In this document: positions 1 through 5,682 of the stretch, piece by piece
How positions within the stretch are numbered: position 1 is the stretch's first letter
How the letters are laid out: every line of letters begins with the position of its first letter
From: a virus
Taxonomy: Duplodnaviria > Heunggongvirae > Uroviricota > Caudoviricetes
Virus record (IMG/VR): IMGVR_UViG_2663762945_000009
Strand: one strand, 5' to 3'
Length of the DNA: 5,682 nt
The notes under the pieces: model-generated
What the model was told of the DNA's origin: nothing
The model's input: only the letters and a program-made list of their open reading frames with translations
Databases searched by the model: none
Translations under genes and position numbers: made by a program

Positions 1-60
1 GCTAAAAGAACCGGAAAAAACAAGGTGATAATTCATTCAAAATAAACACCTTTTTAAAAT

Positions 61-107
61 ACAGCCCCAATAAACTGCAGAATATTATCCCATATAATAT
101 CCTGCAG
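61..107 (-). terminator. Putative rho-independent terminator downstream of the tfa remnant
   Basis: At 75-107, ctgcagaatattatcccatataatatcctgcag gives a ~14-bp stem (one G-U position) with a 5-nt loop. On the - strand it is followed by TTTATT. Stem is AT-rich, so strength is uncertain. Confidence 0.35.
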
Positions 108-118
108 TTCGTAATGCA

Positions 119-214
119 CTATTCGATAATGGGTACTGTTGGCCATTCAATATCCGGTGCAGTTGTTGTATTAACACGGTTCAGCAACACCCGATACTTC
201 TTCCAGGCTTCCAG
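119..214 (-). pseudogene. tfa: Tail fibre assembly protein, C-terminal 31-codon remnant (lambda Tfa-like)
   Basis: The - strand frame encodes [31 protein letters not shown] then a stop at 119-121. This matches the C-terminal motif of lambda Tfa as I recall it, and the same EAW..Y..L..RVDT..P.WP motif closes the intact Tfa at 1515-2042; the convergent copy at 2071-2604 ends differently (KLTEWMLYAQKVESTDTSGLPVTFPEQPE). No N-terminal part is present. Confidence 0.6.
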
Positions 215-444
215 CACCAGCACGACAAGATGCCGCATACAGTGACCCAGTCAGTCCAGTTTCCAGACAACCAGTGCGTCACCTTTTTGAAGGCGCTTTA
301 AAGCACGTTTAATCCAGGTCGGCCTGTCCTTATTCCGCTTAATTTATCTTCAAATATTTGTTCACATCCTGCACAAACAAGAGCGTTTCGTTGCAGGTCT
401 GTATTCTGGTCATTTGTTGATACCCTTACATAGCCAATCAGCAC
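215..444 (-). pseudogene. pin: Serine DNA invertase (Pin/Gin/Hin/Cin family), N-terminal fragment with frameshift and in-frame TGA
   Basis: From GTG at 442-444 the - strand encodes MLIGYVRVSTNDQNTDLQRNALVCAGCEQIFEDKLSGIRTGRPGL (catalytic-serine motif YVRVSTNDQ). A -1 shift near 308-312 then gives KRALKRLQKGDALVVWKLD, an in-frame TGA sits at 251-253, and [12 protein letters not shown] follows. A GGGAGA Shine-Dalgarno lies 6 nt upstream of the GTG. The C-terminal helix-turn-helix domain is absent. Confidence 0.7.
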
Positions 445-498
445 GCTGAATCTCCCGTCCAAAAGCACAAATCATGCCATGCAGGCCAGAAACCGCCA

Positions 499-524
499 TT
501 ATCTAAAACCTCGGTTTACAGGAA
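499..524. other. gix/pix/hix-type inversion crossover site (26 bp, imperfect dyad)
   Basis: TTATCTAAAACCTCGGTTTACAGGAA has the same half-site layout as Gin/Hin sites (TTATC..AAACC / GGTTT..GGAA). It sits between the invertase start and the 5' end of the tail-fibre variable ORF, as gixR does in Mu. Confidence 0.6.
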
Positions 525-548
525 ACGGTAAACAGGGCCAGGAACGCC

Positions 549-1511
549 GTGCAAAAGAATGGCGATACCTTGTCCGGTGGGCTTACTTTTGAAAACGACT
601 CAATCCTTGCCTGGATTAGAAATACTGACTGGGCAAAGATTGGTTTTAAAAATAATGCCGACAGCGACACTGATTCATACATGTGGTTTGAAACAGGCGA
701 CAACGGCAATGAATATTTCAAATGGAGAAGCCGCCAGAGCACCACAACAAAAGACCTGATGACTCTTAAATGGGATGCTTTGTCTGTCCTTGTTAAAGCC
801 CTTTTCAGCAGTGAAGTAAAAATATCGACAGTCAATGCACTGAGGATATTTAATTCATCTTTTGGTGCTATTTTTCGTCGTTCTGAAGAATGCCTGCATA
901 TCATCCCTACACGAGAGAATGAGGGAGAAAATGGTGATATAGGGCCACTACGCCCCTTTACGCTTAATCTCAGAACTGGTCGGATAAGCATGGGGCATGG
1001 TCTTGATGTTACAGGGGATATATTTGCAAACCGTTTTGCAATTAACAGTAGTACCGGCATGTGGATTCATATGCGTGACCAGAATGTTATTTTGGGACGC
1101 AATGCGGTATCCACCGATGGTGCGCAGGCATTACTTCGTCAGGACCACGCTGATCGCAAATTTATGATTGGTGGACTGGGGAATAAGCAATTTGGCATCT
1201 ACATGATTAATAACTCAAGGACAGCCAATGGCACCGATGGTCAGGCGTACATGGACAACAATGGCAACTGGCTTTGCGGTGCGCAAGTTATTCCCGGCAA
1301 TTATGGTAATTTTGACTCACGTTATGTGAGAGATGTCCGACTTGGTACACGTGTTGTTCAGACTATGCAAAAAGGCGTGATGTATGAGAAATCAGGTCAT
1401 GCAATTACGGGGCTTGGCATTATCGGTGCAGTTGATGGCGATGATCCGGCAGTATTCAGACCAATACAAAAATACATCAATGGCACATGGTATAACGTCG
1501 TACAGGTGTAA
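549..1511 (+). CDS. stf: Side tail fibre protein, variable C-terminal (receptor-binding) portion
   Basis: 320-aa ORF with phage tail-fibre motifs (WFETGDNGNEYF; C-terminal RPIQKYINGTWYNV). The frame is open from 507, directly after the gix site. An AGGA lies 5 nt before GTG 549. Stop codon is 3 nt before the tfa start. No constant N-terminal fibre shaft is present upstream. Confidence 0.75.
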   Translation: MQKNGDTLSGGLTFENDSILAWIRNTDWAKIGFKNNADSDTDSYMWFETGDNGNEYFKWRSRQSTTTKDLMTLKWDALSVLVKALFSSEVKISTVNALRIFNSSFGAIFRRSEECLHIIPTRENEGENGDIGPLRPFTLNLRTGRISMGHGLDVTGDIFANRFAINSSTGMWIHMRDQNVILGRNAVSTDGAQALLRQDHADRKFMIGGLGNKQFGIYMINNSRTANGTDGQAYMDNNGNWLCGAQVIPGNYGNFDSRYVRDVRLGTRVVQTMQKGVMYEKSGHAITGLGIIGAVDGDDPAVFRPIQKYINGTWYNVVQV

Positions 1512-1514
1512 TTT

Positions 1515-2042
1515 ATGCAGCATTTAAAAAATATTAAGTCTGGAAATCCAAAAACAAAAGAACAATATCAGCTAACAAAGAATTTTGATGTTATCTGGTT
1601 ATGGTCCGAAGACGGAAAAAACTGGTATGAGGAAGTGAAAAACTTTCAGCCAGACACAATAAAGATTGTTTACGATGCAAATAATATTATTGTCGCCATC
1701 ACCAAAGATGCCTCCACGCTTAACCCTGAAGGTTATAGCGTCGTTGAGGTTCCAGATATTACAGCCAACCGCCGCGCTGATGATTCCGGTAAGTGGATGT
1801 TTAGGGACGGAGCTGTGGTTAAACGGATTTATACGGCAGACGAGCAACAACAACAGGCCGAATCACAAAAGGCCGCATTGCTTTCCGAAGCTGAATCAGT
1901 CATCCAACCGCTGGAACGCGCTGTCAGGCTGAATATGGCAACAGACGAGGAACGCACACGACTGGAAGCATGGGAACGCTACAGTGTTCTGGTCAGCCGT
2001 GTGGATACGGCAAATCCTGAATGGCCACAAAAACCAGAGTAA
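1515..2042 (+). CDS. tfa: Tail fibre assembly protein (Tfa; Mu U / e14 TfaE-like chaperone)
   Basis: 175-aa ORF starting [22 protein letters not shown] and ending [31 protein letters not shown] Shine-Dalgarno 6 nt upstream. Tightly coupled to the preceding stf. Confidence 0.85.
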
Positions 2043-2070
2043 AAATTAAGGCCCGATAGCGGGCCTTCTC
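2043..2070. terminator. Bidirectional hairpin terminator between the convergent tfa genes
   Basis: Stem aaggcccg / cgggcctt with loop atag at 2048-2067. On the - strand it is followed by AATTTTTA; the + strand tail is weaker. Confidence 0.45.
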
Positions 2071-2604
2071 TCATTCTGGTTGTTCGGGAAACGTTACTGG
2101 CAGGCCGGAAGTGTCTGTAGATTCGACTTTCTGCGCATAGAGCATCCACTCGGTTAATTTTTGTTTATTCTCGTCGGAAATGATGCCCAGCCGTAGCTGT
2201 GAGTCCCATAGCTGGGTTTTATCCCTGACAAGTTGCAACAGGCTTTGCTTTTCATTTTCCGCTTGTTGCCTCTGCTCTTCCTCGGTATAAGTTCGCTTTA
2301 TCACTACGCCATCTTTGAACATCCATTTCCCCGAAATATCAGCCCGGCGATTTGCTGTAATATCAGGTAATTCAACGACGCTTGCACCCTCTGGATTAAT
2401 TGCTGAAACATCCTTTTCAATACAAATAATAACGCCGTTATGGTCATAGACCATTTTCAAAGTGTCTGGCTGGAAATTCTTTTGTTCCTCATACCAGTTT
2501 TTTCCATCATCTGAATAAAGCCATTTGATGTTAAATTGCTTTGTTAGCTGGTATTGCTCTTTTGTTTTAGGGTTGCCAGCAGTAATGTTTTTTAAGTGCA
2601 TCAT
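2071..2604 (-). CDS. tfa: Tail fibre assembly protein (second, inverted copy; Mu U'-like)
   Basis: 177-aa [25 protein letters not shown], a paralogue of the + strand Tfa with a diverged C-terminal half. GGGGAG Shine-Dalgarno inside the 3' end of the upstream stf fragment. Confidence 0.85.
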   Translation of the reverse strand: MMHLKNITAGNPKTKEQYQLTKQFNIKWLYSDDGKNWYEEQKNFQPDTLKMVYDHNGVIICIEKDVSAINPEGASVVELPDITANRRADISGKWMFKDGVVIKRTYTEEEQRQQAENEKQSLLQLVRDKTQLWDSQLRLGIISDENKQKLTEWMLYAQKVESTDTSGLPVTFPEQPE

Positions 2605-2606
2605 CG

Positions 2607-2840
2607 TTAAATACTCCCCGCGTTATACCACGTCCCATTAATGCAATACTGAATTGGCCTTGCCTGAGTTGTATCAATTAATTCATCACGGTTTCCGTTA
2701 ACTGAACCCGTAACGACATAACCTGACCTGTCAGACCAGCCGGGGCCTTTCCATGTCTGAACAGATGACAGACCGCCAAGGCGAATACCTGTAATAAACC
2801 TTGAGTTACATTCTGCCTGCGTATATGCACCAACATCTCG
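2607..2840 (-). pseudogene. stf: Side tail fibre protein, second variable tip, truncated to its C-terminal ~75 codons
   Basis: The - strand encodes ...GAYTQAECNSRFITGIRLGGLSSVQTWKGPGWSDRSGYVVTGSVNGNRDELIDTTQARPIQYCINGTWYNAGSI, alignable to the last ~75 aa of the 549-1511 ORF (shared RLG...RPIQ.Y/CINGTWYN). The 5' portion and its expected gix site are replaced by lambda-like sequence. Confidence 0.6.
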
Positions 2841-2888
2841 CCTTTGAAAAAATCCAGATATCCGCCGGAATGGTGCAGAAATGTCGGT

Positions 2889-3164
2889 ATACGGATAACG
2901 GCTACTCCGTGTTTGAGCAGTCACTGCTGCGGTATATCGCTGCCGGGCTGGGTGTCTCGTATGAGCAGCTTTCCCGGAATTACGCCCAGATGAGCTACTC
3001 CACGGCACGGGCCAGTGCGAACGAGTCGTGGGCGTACTTTATGGGGCGGCGAAAATTCGTCGCATCCCGTCAGGCGAGCCAGATGTTTCTGTGCTGGCTG
3101 GAAGAGGCCATCGTTCGCCGCGTGGTGACGTTACCTTCAAAAGCGCGCTTCAGTTTTCAGGAAG
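2889..3164 (+). pseudogene. B: Portal protein B, internal fragment (lambda gpB-like)
   Basis: Encodes TDNGYSVFEQSLLRYIAAGLGVSYEQLSRNYAQMSYSTARASANESWAYFMGRRKFVASRQASQMFLCWLEEAIVRRVVTLPSKARFSFQE, which I recognise as an internal stretch of lambda B. It ends abruptly at 3164. Confidence 0.8.
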
Positions 3165-3688
3165 GCGGCACTGGCAAGCAGCTGACCTGCACTGCAGTTC
3201 ATGTCGTTGGCCAGCGCCCATACCGGTTTTATGTCACGCACACGGGCGATGATGTCAGCGCAGTCAAATGCCCCCGCCACCATCCCGCCGGGCGTGTCCA
3301 TATCGAGCAGAATGCCGTCCACCATCGGATCGCTGGCAGCCTGTTGCAGACGGGCGATAATGCCGTTGTAACCGGTCATCCCCGAGTACGGCTGCAGCGC
3401 CCGCGTCCGGCTGACCAGCGTGCCGGACACCGGCAGCACGGCGATGCCGTTCATGACCTGATAACTGCGGGCCTGTCGTGGTCCGTCATCATCACCGGAT
3501 AATGCCAGCGTCGCGGGTGCCTCCTGGGCAGTCAGGCTGTCGCCGGACACCGCATCCGTCAGGCGGCTGATCCCAAGCTGGCCTGCAAGCGCACAAAAGA
3601 AAACCCGCGCATAGGCGGGTTCAAGCATCAGCGGCTCATTAAAAGCCATGCTGGCAATATGCGGGAGATTACGCAGCTCTGCTGTCAC
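3165..3688 (-). pseudogene. C: Head protease/scaffold protein C (S49 ClpP-like), N-terminal ~173 codons
   Basis: From GTG at 3686-3688 the - strand encodes VTAELRNLPHIASMAFNEPLMLEPAYARVFF...MNCSAGQLLASAA, the lambda gpC N-terminus as I recall it. It overlaps the B stop by ~20 nt as in lambda. Reading continues into unrelated sequence after 3165. Confidence 0.8.
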
Positions 3689-3958
3689 TCTTCTCCTCCT
3701 CTGTTGATTGTCGCAGCCCGGATTCAAATGCTGCAGCCGCCCAGGCGGGCGGTTTAAGACCGGCTGCGCGGCGCTCCATCGTTTCACGGACCTGCTGGGC
3801 AAAAATTTCCTGATAGTCGTCACCGCGTTTCGCGCACTCTTTCTCGTAGGTGCTCAGTCCGGCTTCTATCAGCATCACCGCTTCCTGAACTTCTTTCAGA
3901 CCATCGATGGCCATACGACCGGAGCCTATCCAGTCGCAGTTCCCCCAGGCACTGCGGG
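3669..3958 (-). pseudogene. B: Portal protein B, C-terminal ~95 codons
   Basis: The - strand encodes ARSAWGNCDWIGSGRMAIDGLKEVQEAVMLIEAGLSTYEKECAKRGDDYQEIFAQQVRETMERRAAGLKPPAWAAAAFESGLRQSTEEEKSDSRAA then a stop. This is the direct continuation of the + strand B fragment that ends at 3164, but on the opposite strand. Confidence 0.8.
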
Positions 3959-4154
3959 CTCCCGGCGTCTGGTCACGCAGACCGCCCGGACAGGCTCCAT
4001 CGGCGTCATGATGGCTCACAGTAATTACGGTGCTGCGCTGGAGAAACAGGGTGTGGAAATCACTCTGATTTACAGCGGCAGCCATAAGGTGGATGGCAAC
4101 CCCTACAGCCATCTTCCGGATGACGTCCGGGAGACACTGCAGTCCCGGATGGAC
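3959..4154 (+). pseudogene. C: Protein C, internal fragment continuing from the - strand C fragment
   Basis: Encodes SRRLVTQTARTGSIGVMMAHSNYGAALEKQGVEITLIYSGSHKVDGNPYSHLPDDVRETLQSRMDAT, the residues that follow ...QLLASAA in lambda C. Strand is opposite to the C N-terminal fragment. Confidence 0.75.
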
Positions 4155-4470
4155 GCAACCAGATAAGGGTGTTGCGCTGCTTATGCTCTATGAAGTAGGC
4201 ATAAACACCCAGCAGCATTTTGGAATAACCGACACGGGCAGACTTCACCACATTCACCTCACGGATGTAGTCGCTGCCCATCGCATTCATGATGGCCCGC
4301 TGAAAGGGCAGTGTTTCCCAGCGCCCTTCCTGGTATGCGGATTCTTTCGGGAGATAGTAATTGGCATCCGCCCATTCAACGGCGGTCTGTGGCTCCGGCC
4401 TGAACAGTGAGCGAAGCCCGGCGCGGACAAAATGCCGCAGCCTGTTAACCTGACTGTTCGATATATTCAC
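4155..4470 (-). pseudogene. A: Terminase large subunit A, N-terminal ~105 codons only
   Basis: From GTG at 4468-4470 the - strand encodes MNISNSQVNRLRHFVRAGLRSLFRPEPQTAVEWADANYYLPKESAYQEGRWETLPFQRAIMNAMGSDYIREVNVVKSARVGYSKMLLGVYAYFIEHKQRNTLIWL. It overlaps the Nu1 stop as in lambda. Homology ends at ~4155; this N-terminal piece is the Nu1-interacting region, and the ATPase and nuclease domains are missing. Confidence 0.85.
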
Positions 4471-4990
4471 TCAGCAACCCCGGTATCAGTTCATCCAGCG
4501 CGGCTGCTTTGTTCATGGCTTTGATGATATCCCGTTTCAGGAAATCAACATGTCGGTTTTCCAGTTCCGGAAAACGCCGCTGCACCGACAGGGGGATCCC
4601 GTCGAGAATACTGGCAATTTCACCTGCGATCCGCGACAGCACGAAAGTACAGAATGCGGTTTCCACCACTTCAGCTGAGTCTCTGGCATTCTTCAGTTCC
4701 TGTGCGTCGGCCTGCGCACGCGTAAGTCGATGGCGTTCGTACTCAATAGTCCCTGGCTGGAGATCTGCCTCGCTGGCCTGGCGCAGTTCTTCAACCTCCC
4801 GGCGCAGCTTTTCGTTCTCAATTTCAGCATCCCTTTCGGCATACCATTTTATAACGGCGGCAGAGTCATAAAGCACCTCATTACCCTTGCCACCGCCTCG
4901 CAGAACGGGCATTCCCTGTTCCTGCCAGTTCTGAATGGTACGGATACTCGCACCGAAAATGTCAGCCAGCTGCTTTTTGTTGACTTCCAT
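4445..4990 (-). CDS. Nu1: Terminase small subunit Nu1, full length
   Basis: 181-aa ORF MEVNKKQLADIFGASIRTIQNWQEQGMPVLRGGGKGNEVLYD...SEYIEQSG with intact start and stop. It matches lambda Nu1 as I recall it. It lies immediately downstream (on the - strand) of cosB. Confidence 0.9.
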   Translation of the reverse strand: MEVNKKQLADIFGASIRTIQNWQEQGMPVLRGGGKGNEVLYDSAAVIKWYAERDAEIENEKLRREVEELRQASEADLQPGTIEYERHRLTRAQADAQELKNARDSAEVVETAFCTFVLSRIAGEIASILDGIPLSVQRRFPELENRHVDFLKRDIIKAMNKAAALDELIPGLLSEYIEQSG

Positions 4991-5167
4991 TGTTCATTCC
5001 ACGGCCAAAAACAGAGAAAGGAAACGACAAAGGCCCAAAAGTTCGTTTTCAGCACCTGTCGTTTCCTTTCTTTTCAGGGGGTATTTTAAATAAAAACATT
5101 AAGTTACGACGAAGAAGAACGGAAACGCCTTAAACCGGAAAATTTTCATAAATAGCGAAAACCCGCG
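4991..5167 (-). promoter_or_regulatory. cosB-like terminase-binding region (R-site repeats)
   Basis: Three R-element-like repeats of the cgtttcc(t/g)ttc(t) type at ~5012-5033, ~5054-5071 and ~5110-5126, between cosN and the Nu1 start. This is the layout of lambda cosB. Confidence 0.6.
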
Positions 5168-5179
5168 AGGTCGCCGCCC
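5168..5179. other. cosN cohesive-end sequence (12 nt)
   Basis: aggtcgccgccc is the reverse complement of the lambda 12-nt cohesive end GGGCGGCGACCT. Sequence beyond 5180 resembles the lambda right end (cosQ side), so the two genome ends are joined here as in a prophage or concatemer. Confidence 0.7.
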
Positions 5180-5378
5180 CGTAACCTGTCGGATCGCCGG
5201 AAAGGACCCGAAAAATGATAATGATTATCATCTGCATGTCACAACGTGCATCTACGCCATCAAACCACGTCAAATAATCAATTATGACGCAGGTATCGTA
5301 TTAATTGATCTGCATCAACTTAACGTAAAAACAACTTCAGACAATACAAATCAGCGACACTGAATACGGGACAACCTC

Positions 5379-5612
5379 ATGTCAACGAAGAACAGAACCC
5401 GCAGAACAACAACCCGCAACATCCGCTTTCCTAACCAAATGATTGAACAAATTAACATCGCTCTTGATCAAAAAGGGTCCGGGAATTTCTCAGCCTGGGT
5501 CATTGAAGCCTGCCGCCGGAGACTGTGCTCAGAAAAAAGAGTTTCTCCTGAAGCAAACAAAGAAAAGAGTGACATTACTGAATTGCTCAGAAAACAGATC
5601 AGACCAGATTGA
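5379..5612 (+). CDS. Hypothetical small basic protein (77 aa), possible ribbon-helix-helix DNA-binding fold
   Basis: ORF MSTKNRTRRTTTRNIRFPNQMIEQINIALDQKGSGNFSAWVIEACRRRL... has a basic N-terminus, then a short beta-like segment (NIRFP) and two helix-like segments. Only a weak GGGA Shine-Dalgarno ~7 nt upstream. It lies in sequence resembling the lambda right-end region; whether it is expressed is unknown. Confidence 0.35.
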   Translation: MSTKNRTRRTTTRNIRFPNQMIEQINIALDQKGSGNFSAWVIEACRRRLCSEKRVSPEANKEKSDITELLRKQIRPD

Positions 5613-5682
5613 AGCAATTTAGATAATCGTGCAGACTACGCTCCCTCATATCACATGGAAGGTACTACAATGGCTCAGGTTG

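Follow-up and report, generated by a model that had tools for sequence, protein, structure and literature searches.

Serine invertases of the Gin, Hin and Cin type share a mode of action in which invertase dimers bind a crossover site and its inverted partner, synapse on a Fis-bound enhancer, cut and rotate. Such Fis- and enhancer-dependent enzymes normally require two inverted sites on one supercoiled domain. In Mu-type switches, one site lies within the fibre gene at the constant/variable junction, and the other lies beside the invertase gene, where it abuts the silent tip. P1 (cixL/cixR), e14 (pix) and Salmonella (hix) carry sites of the same 26-bp family (12-2-12) served by Fis/enhancer-dependent serine invertases, and in these systems, as putatively at the locus described here, the enhancer sits within the 5' part of the invertase gene. 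Their core dinucleotide is AA, whereas it is GA in our site, and Hin controls a promoter and not a fibre gene.

The locus lies in a viral DNA stretch of 5,682 nucleotides, referred to below as the window. By sequence it belongs to the Fis-dependent systems for tail-fibre inversion of the Gin/PinB class, i.e., it is an already described site in a decayed copy. Its site is identical over 26 bp to one of the PinB/B-segment system of Shigella boydii/sonnei, and the partner found in related E. coli is bixL. The two loci are also alike in segment length (about 3.05 kb) and in the G-gin order of Sv, tfa, tfa', Sv' and an invertase transcribed away from the segment. Unlike the PinB/B-segment system, the window has a frameshifted and truncated stub in place of the invertase, has lost bixL and the constant fibre part by deletion, and belongs to a decayed lambdoid prophage beside bioA-ybhB. 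Window positions 499-2839 are colinear with gixL-S-U-U'-S' of Mu at 85% identity, and 255-536 match gixR-gin at 92.6%. Unlike in Mu gixR, one outer-half substitution (G to A) creates a TAA that closes the fibre frame. The two sites of Mu are identical, whereas the outer halves of bixR and bixL differ, and the host of the present cassette is lambdoid, not Mu.

We conclude, with a probability of about 0.9, that 499-524 is the bixR-type, invertase-proximal site of a tail-fibre cassette of the Mu G-segment/Shigella B-segment type, and that it is an inert relic here because the partner site and the constant fibre part have been deleted. The cassette host is a decayed lambdoid prophage in the bio-proximal lambda attachment region of an E. 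coli/Shigella-type chromosome. The features of the cassette are as follows.

220-444, - strand: pseudogene of a pin/gin-family serine invertase (resolvase N-terminal domain by Pfam; homology to gin)
355-426, - strand: homologue of the Fis-dependent recombinational enhancer (invertase nt 19-90; identical to Mu gin)
445-498, - strand: spacer between site and pin, 54 nt (also 54 nt in the relatives recovered by anchored search)
499-524, - strand: invertase crossover site of bixR type, 26 bp, reading TTATCTAAAACCTCGGTTTACAGGAA in window direction (26/26 to published bixR; inversion breakpoints inside it in relatives)
507-1511, + strand: silent variable C-terminal part of the tail fibre, Mu Sv homologue (Gp34_trimer by Pfam; Mu colinearity from gixL onward)
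1515-2042, + strand: tail-fibre assembly gene, Mu U homologue (Pfam Caudo_TAP, E = 1e-37; Mu colinearity)
2071-2604, - strand: alternative tail-fibre assembly gene, Mu U' homologue (Pfam Caudo_TAP, E = 2e-36)
2607-2837, - strand: 3'-terminal stretch of about 77 codons from Sv', the alternative variable part of the fibre (identity to E. coli C2 ends at 2837)

Read on the pin strand, 499-524 is TTCCTGTAAACC GA GGTTTTAGATAA, with the central exchange dinucleotide at 511-512, the inner half (513-524) towards the invertible segment and the outer half (499-510) towards pin. The dyad is imperfect (7 of 12 half-site positions are symmetric), which is normal for the gix/bix site family, and it contains a perfect palindromic core, AAACC-TC-GGTTT, at 506-517. 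The core occurs once in the window, as does the 26-mer with up to 3 mismatches allowed (0.00 chance matches expected). Din-family invertase target sites are compiled in table 3 of PMC3241671, where bixR is given as TTCCTGTAAACC GA GGTTTTAGATAA (GenBank D00660) and gixL/gixR of Mu as TTCCTGTAAACC GA GGTTTTGGATAA, 1 position apart from bixR. This is a secondary table for the bix reference sequences, which it credits to D00660 / Tominaga, Ikemizu and Enomoto 1991. The window site agrees with bixR of the PinB/B-segment system at 26/26 positions and with Mu gixL/gixR at 25/26, the GA core being common to all, and both its sequence and its core are those of a Din-family crossover site.

An earlier note made from the letters of this DNA had called the site gix-like and had named a lack of similarity to known gix/hix sites beyond chance as a possible refutation. 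The similarity is there and the claim stands. The sequence facts on which that note drew, namely the 26-bp dyad, the pin GTG, the frame from 507 and the promoter-like strings, were all found in place, and the remainder of its interval, 525-548, is merely the first part of the fibre-tip coding sequence. Among species-representative genomes, the full 26-bp site gave 0 matches and a 20-mer core gave 4. Because about 4 are expected by chance according to our own estimate, these four are background, and in the Xenorhabdus match, the one examined of the 4, the core alone matches.

The position of the site within the switch had been given as the constant/variable junction of the fibre gene, and here our results differ. 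The site at 499-524 is the invertase-proximal one (the gixR equivalent), which abuts the silent copy of the fibre tip and is not the junction of an expressed gene; the junction site, of bixL type, lies at the far end of the segment in relatives and is deleted in the window. This distinction is also seen in 137 classified site instances in 120 IMG/VR viral contigs, in which a bixR-type outer half was followed by a Gin-like start in 54/57 instances and a bixL-type site was preceded by a long open fibre frame in 69/71. Coding sequence (..IEYLGLQETVN..) runs through the outer half of the bixL type, as it does in P2 gene H, and the bixR-type outer half holds the frame-closing TAA. In the window this TAA stands at 504-506, after which the frame is open from 507 to the stop codon at 1509-1511, confirming that the fibre frame opens at 507 inside the site. 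The frame comes without the constant N-terminal part and is annotated by PGAP as 'phage tail protein, missing N-terminus'. In a BLAST comparison with phage records, homology to Mu sets in at precisely 499, a position annotated in the Mu record as the boundary of the G segment. The window orientation places the Mu-S-like tip next to pin, i.e., in the silent position. The site adjoins a pin/gin homologue and abuts a fibre-tip frame, as the earlier note had it, and a check of relatives for the 26-mer away from a fibre-gene junction did not overturn this, since the site is invertase-proximal in the 54/57 instances above and related genomes show a clean inversion at it. A 185-aa ORF at 503-1060 (- strand) also begins within the site and runs antisense to the fibre-tip gene; it is in all likelihood spurious.

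Codons 1-46 of pin are intact (444-307). Near 307, an A run is 1 nt shorter than in C2 and Mu, and this deletion shifts the frame into a stop at 300-298, and further on the Arg codon at 253-251 is replaced by TGA. Homology to invertases extends to about codon 75; there the remnant has become fused with a 3' fragment of a tail-fibre assembly gene (about 119-219), and the C-terminal DNA-binding domain is missing. No intact serine invertase gene thus adjoins the site. In relatives, PGAP annotates the same region as a 64-aa 'recombinase family protein' and a partial tfa. The deletion near 307 is without counterpart in complete E. coli genomes. However, the frameshifted allele is no sequencing artefact of the window because it is also carried by 2 independent metagenome/SRA contigs (L127 and L128), which are 100% identical to window 1-1384 and 1-696, respectively.

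The enhancer homologue is intact, since window 355-426 aligns with the Cin inversion enhancer that the P1 record annotates at cin nt 19-90, and window 331-444 and Mu gin nt 1-114 share 100% identity. This likeness suggests that 355-426 could function as an enhancer, and invertase and Fis would be expected to bind at this locus. A strict Fis-motif scan returned Fis-like motifs centred 107 and 144 bp from the site centre; these are 37 bp apart compared to the 48 bp that separate Fis sites in invertase enhancers, and we do not rely on the scan result.

In an intact system of this kind, Pin/Gin serine invertase dimers would bind the site and its inverted partner within the fibre gene, and synapsis would take place on the Fis-bound enhancer in the 5' end of the invertase gene. 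Cutting at the central GA/TC dinucleotide and rotation would then flip about 3.05 kb, and the constant fibre part would thereby be connected with either of two tips, which have an assembly chaperone each. The site seen in the window abuts whichever tip is off, and the outer-half TAA keeps the silent copy closed. The switch is defunct here, and only one end of it survives, with the site, the 54-nt spacer, the enhancer homologue and the dead invertase stub. As this DNA has a single site and lacks both an invertase and the constant fibre part, it can by itself support neither inversion nor fibre expression.

The window holds no second site, either with up to 3 mismatches, in an inverted-repeat check or as a second AAACCNNGGTTT core. 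An inverted pair, 3011 nt apart, is present in the relatives L001, L002 and L003. E. coli C2 (L001) is 99.8% identical to the window over 1-2837, and its partner site reads TTCCTGTAAACC GA GGTATTCGATAA, which is the published bixL. The 945-aa tail-fibre gene that contains this partner neighbours lom and J in a lambdoid prophage adjacent to bioA-ybhB. Homology between the window and this intact locus stops at 2837, inside Sv', and the partner site of C2 is 716 bp further on. As homology ends at this point, the bixL-type partner, the rest of Sv' and the constant fibre part are gone from the window, and the partner has been lost by deletion beyond 2837. No complete E. coli genome covering at least 80% of the window was found, and a search with the ORF that crosses the 2837 junction gave no match. 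Within the retained part, the assembly gene at 2071-2604 forms an inverted repeat with 1515-1675. The window differs from C2 at 7 places over the 2837 nt, 6 of them within the first 307 nt (T for C at 3, 32 and 36, A for C at 135, G for C at 214, and the 1-nt deletion); the seventh is at 1773, and the cassette is otherwise identical.

Natural inversion of the segment can be followed in these relatives. E. coli Z0117EC0098 (L003) has the same 3053-bp segment as C2, inverted relative to its flanks. Between the crossover centres, 1 base differs over the 3053 bp; outside them, no difference is seen in 512 nt on the pin side or in the initial 165 nt on the side of the constant fibre part. Inner flanks and outer half-sites, both polymorphic, are reciprocally exchanged between the two strains, which places the exchange inside the 26-mers. 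Locus-specific 700-nt junction queries against 5,426 complete E. coli genomes found the locus in 155, with the window orientation in 97 and the flipped orientation in 58. Both orientations, with exchange within the sites, are thus found for the locus in relatives, and the window itself has one site. In L001 and L003, the one representative read for each orientation, the truncated 64-aa pin remnant has the same protein accession, with the same TGA and the same truncation. Since the dead pin and the 512-nt flanks are identical in these two, at least one flip would have occurred after pin was inactivated, and such a flip would imply an invertase acting in trans.

The stretch between the site and pin is conserved in length. 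Exactly 54 nt (445-498) separate the site from the pin GTG at 444-442 (- strand), with a ribosome-binding site, GGGAGA, at 456-451. The same length of 54 nt was found in all relatives retrieved when the search was anchored on a Gin-like start at most 120 nt from the site, and the 67 nt between site centre and invertase start codon are the same in the window and in Mu, where they separate gixR from gin. Across 42 unique relatives, which were pre-selected for the 54-nt spacing, the block TGCATGGCATGATTT (483-469, - strand) is almost invariant and neighbouring positions vary. Within this block, TGgCATGAT (479-471) is a candidate extended -10 element for the invertase gene, and such an element would set its -35 region against the outer edge of the site.

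The earlier note had proposed that the pin promoter overlaps the site, and it could be argued that the present-day main role of 499-524 is that of a pin promoter/operator, with TAGATAAT as -10 and TGTAAA as -35. Both strings are indeed present on the - strand, TAGATAAT at 505-498 and TGTAAA at 520-515, and GATAAT at 503-498 agrees with TATAAT at 5/6 positions. Moreover, a pin start 54 nt downstream of the site means that the promoter must be in or near it, and autoregulation through invertase binding is plausible. However, TGTAAA and GATAAT are only 11 nt apart, compared to the 16-18 nt expected between -35 and -10 hexamers of adequate consensus match, and a sigma-70 consensus scan of 380-640 on both strands found no promoter, nor was a terminator found there. 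The half-site consensus itself requires GATAA, so its conservation cannot be credited to a promoter, and the better-conserved candidate TGgCATGAT lies outside the site. P1, invoked as a parallel for a promoter overlapping the site, is a wrong analogy. According to its record, P1 transcribes cin in the direction of cixL, with the cin stop codon 4 nt away from the crossover and the predicted promoters about 600 bp from the cix site. A phrase search for a gin, cin or pin promoter found none in the literature covered. As pin is a pseudogene here, the question is moot for the window, and we regard a promoter as the main role of the site as unlikely.

It is barely credible that the likeness to crossover sites reflects only conserved tail-fibre coding sequence with no role in recombination. 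P2 shows that such a likeness can occur, as its gene H contains TTATCGAATATCTCGGTTTACAGGAA, encoding ..VIEYLGLQETVN.., a 26-mer one base off bixL at the same place in the fibre protein. This match is fully coding and wholly within gene H, with no invertase annotated under it, and to our knowledge P2 has neither an invertase nor an inversion. The outer half of the window site, in contrast, is non-coding, with a stop codon inside followed by pin leader and not by fibre sequence. In addition, the exact variant is invertase-proximal in 54/57 instances, and the relatives differ by a precise inversion at the 26-mer. A different objection to an inert relic is that the site might still be a working substrate, paired by a Pin-family invertase of another prophage, in trans, with a gix-type site outside the window. 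In its favour, the window retains both the site and the enhancer homologue intact, and the dead pin and identical 512-nt pin-side flanks of the two orientations suggest that at least one flip needed an invertase in trans. On the other hand, no partner is present within the 5.7 kb of the window, and a single site contrasts with the usual need for two inverted sites on one supercoiled domain. Such pairing would predict larger chromosomal inversions or deletions, but no rearrangement in the window ends at 511/512, and the deletion endpoint at 2837 is not at a site. We therefore find this pairing very improbable, and retain the reading of 499-524 as an inert invertase-proximal relic.

The main value of these results is correct annotation, i.e., an orphan crossover site of bixR/gixR type adjoining a pin pseudogene; the ORF of 320 aa, a 'tail protein', is better labelled a silent fibre-tip cassette. 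As a mildly useful by-product, the pin-less cassette found in both orientations may serve as natural evidence that invertases of other elements service defective switches, given that L001 and L003 combine the dead pin and the identical 512-nt flank with opposite orientations. Servicing of this kind would not be new, as cross-complementation is reported to have been described experimentally before; Tominaga is said to have shown it in 1991 among Hin, Pin, Cin and PinB. More generally, we consider it quite unlikely that an orphan bixR site with an intact enhancer homologue still serves Pin-family invertases supplied in trans by other prophages. If it did, and as flips in relatives would have postdated the death of their own pin, orphan sites could be hidden hot spots of invertase-driven chromosomal rearrangement between prophages.

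To the right of 2837, the window is a patchwork of fragments of lambda-like terminase A, portal B and protease C, after which come Nu1, cos and ynfO.

2858-2890: piece of terminase A
2889-3173, + strand: match to lambda 3872-4156
3160-3963, inverted: match to lambda 4946-4143
3950-4160, + strand: match to lambda 4933-5143
4445-4990, - strand: intact Nu1
5379-5612: gene of the YlcI/YnfO family (DUF3950)

The lambda matches between 2889 and 4160 show that a piece of about 800 bp over the portal/protease boundary is inverted in place, and overlaps of about 14 nt (short imperfect inverted repeats) are seen at both of its junctions. No invertase-site motif is present at the junctions of the patchwork (2838-4160). 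Invertase action at quasi-sites was considered as an origin for the 2837 deletion or for the inversion of the lambda piece 3160-3963, and was rejected because the junctions are not at a site and have no AAACC..GGTTT core. In the region 4155-5682, Nu1, the 5' part of terminase A (N-terminal) and the lambda left cohesive end are 98.5% identical to lambda, and lambda nt 1 corresponds to window 5179. When read, the bases beyond 5179 resemble the lambda right end, and cos may be complete. The same arrangement of Nu1, terminase A, cohesive end and YnfO is also found in strain Z0117EC0098. At the other end of the window, a near-perfect hairpin at 73-109 (AACTGCAGAATATTAT / ATAATATCCTGCAGTT, 94% complementary, 5-nt loop) follows shortly after a MASE4-GGDEF diguanylate cyclase gene, whose 3' end is near 45, and may be a terminator or a rearrangement scar.
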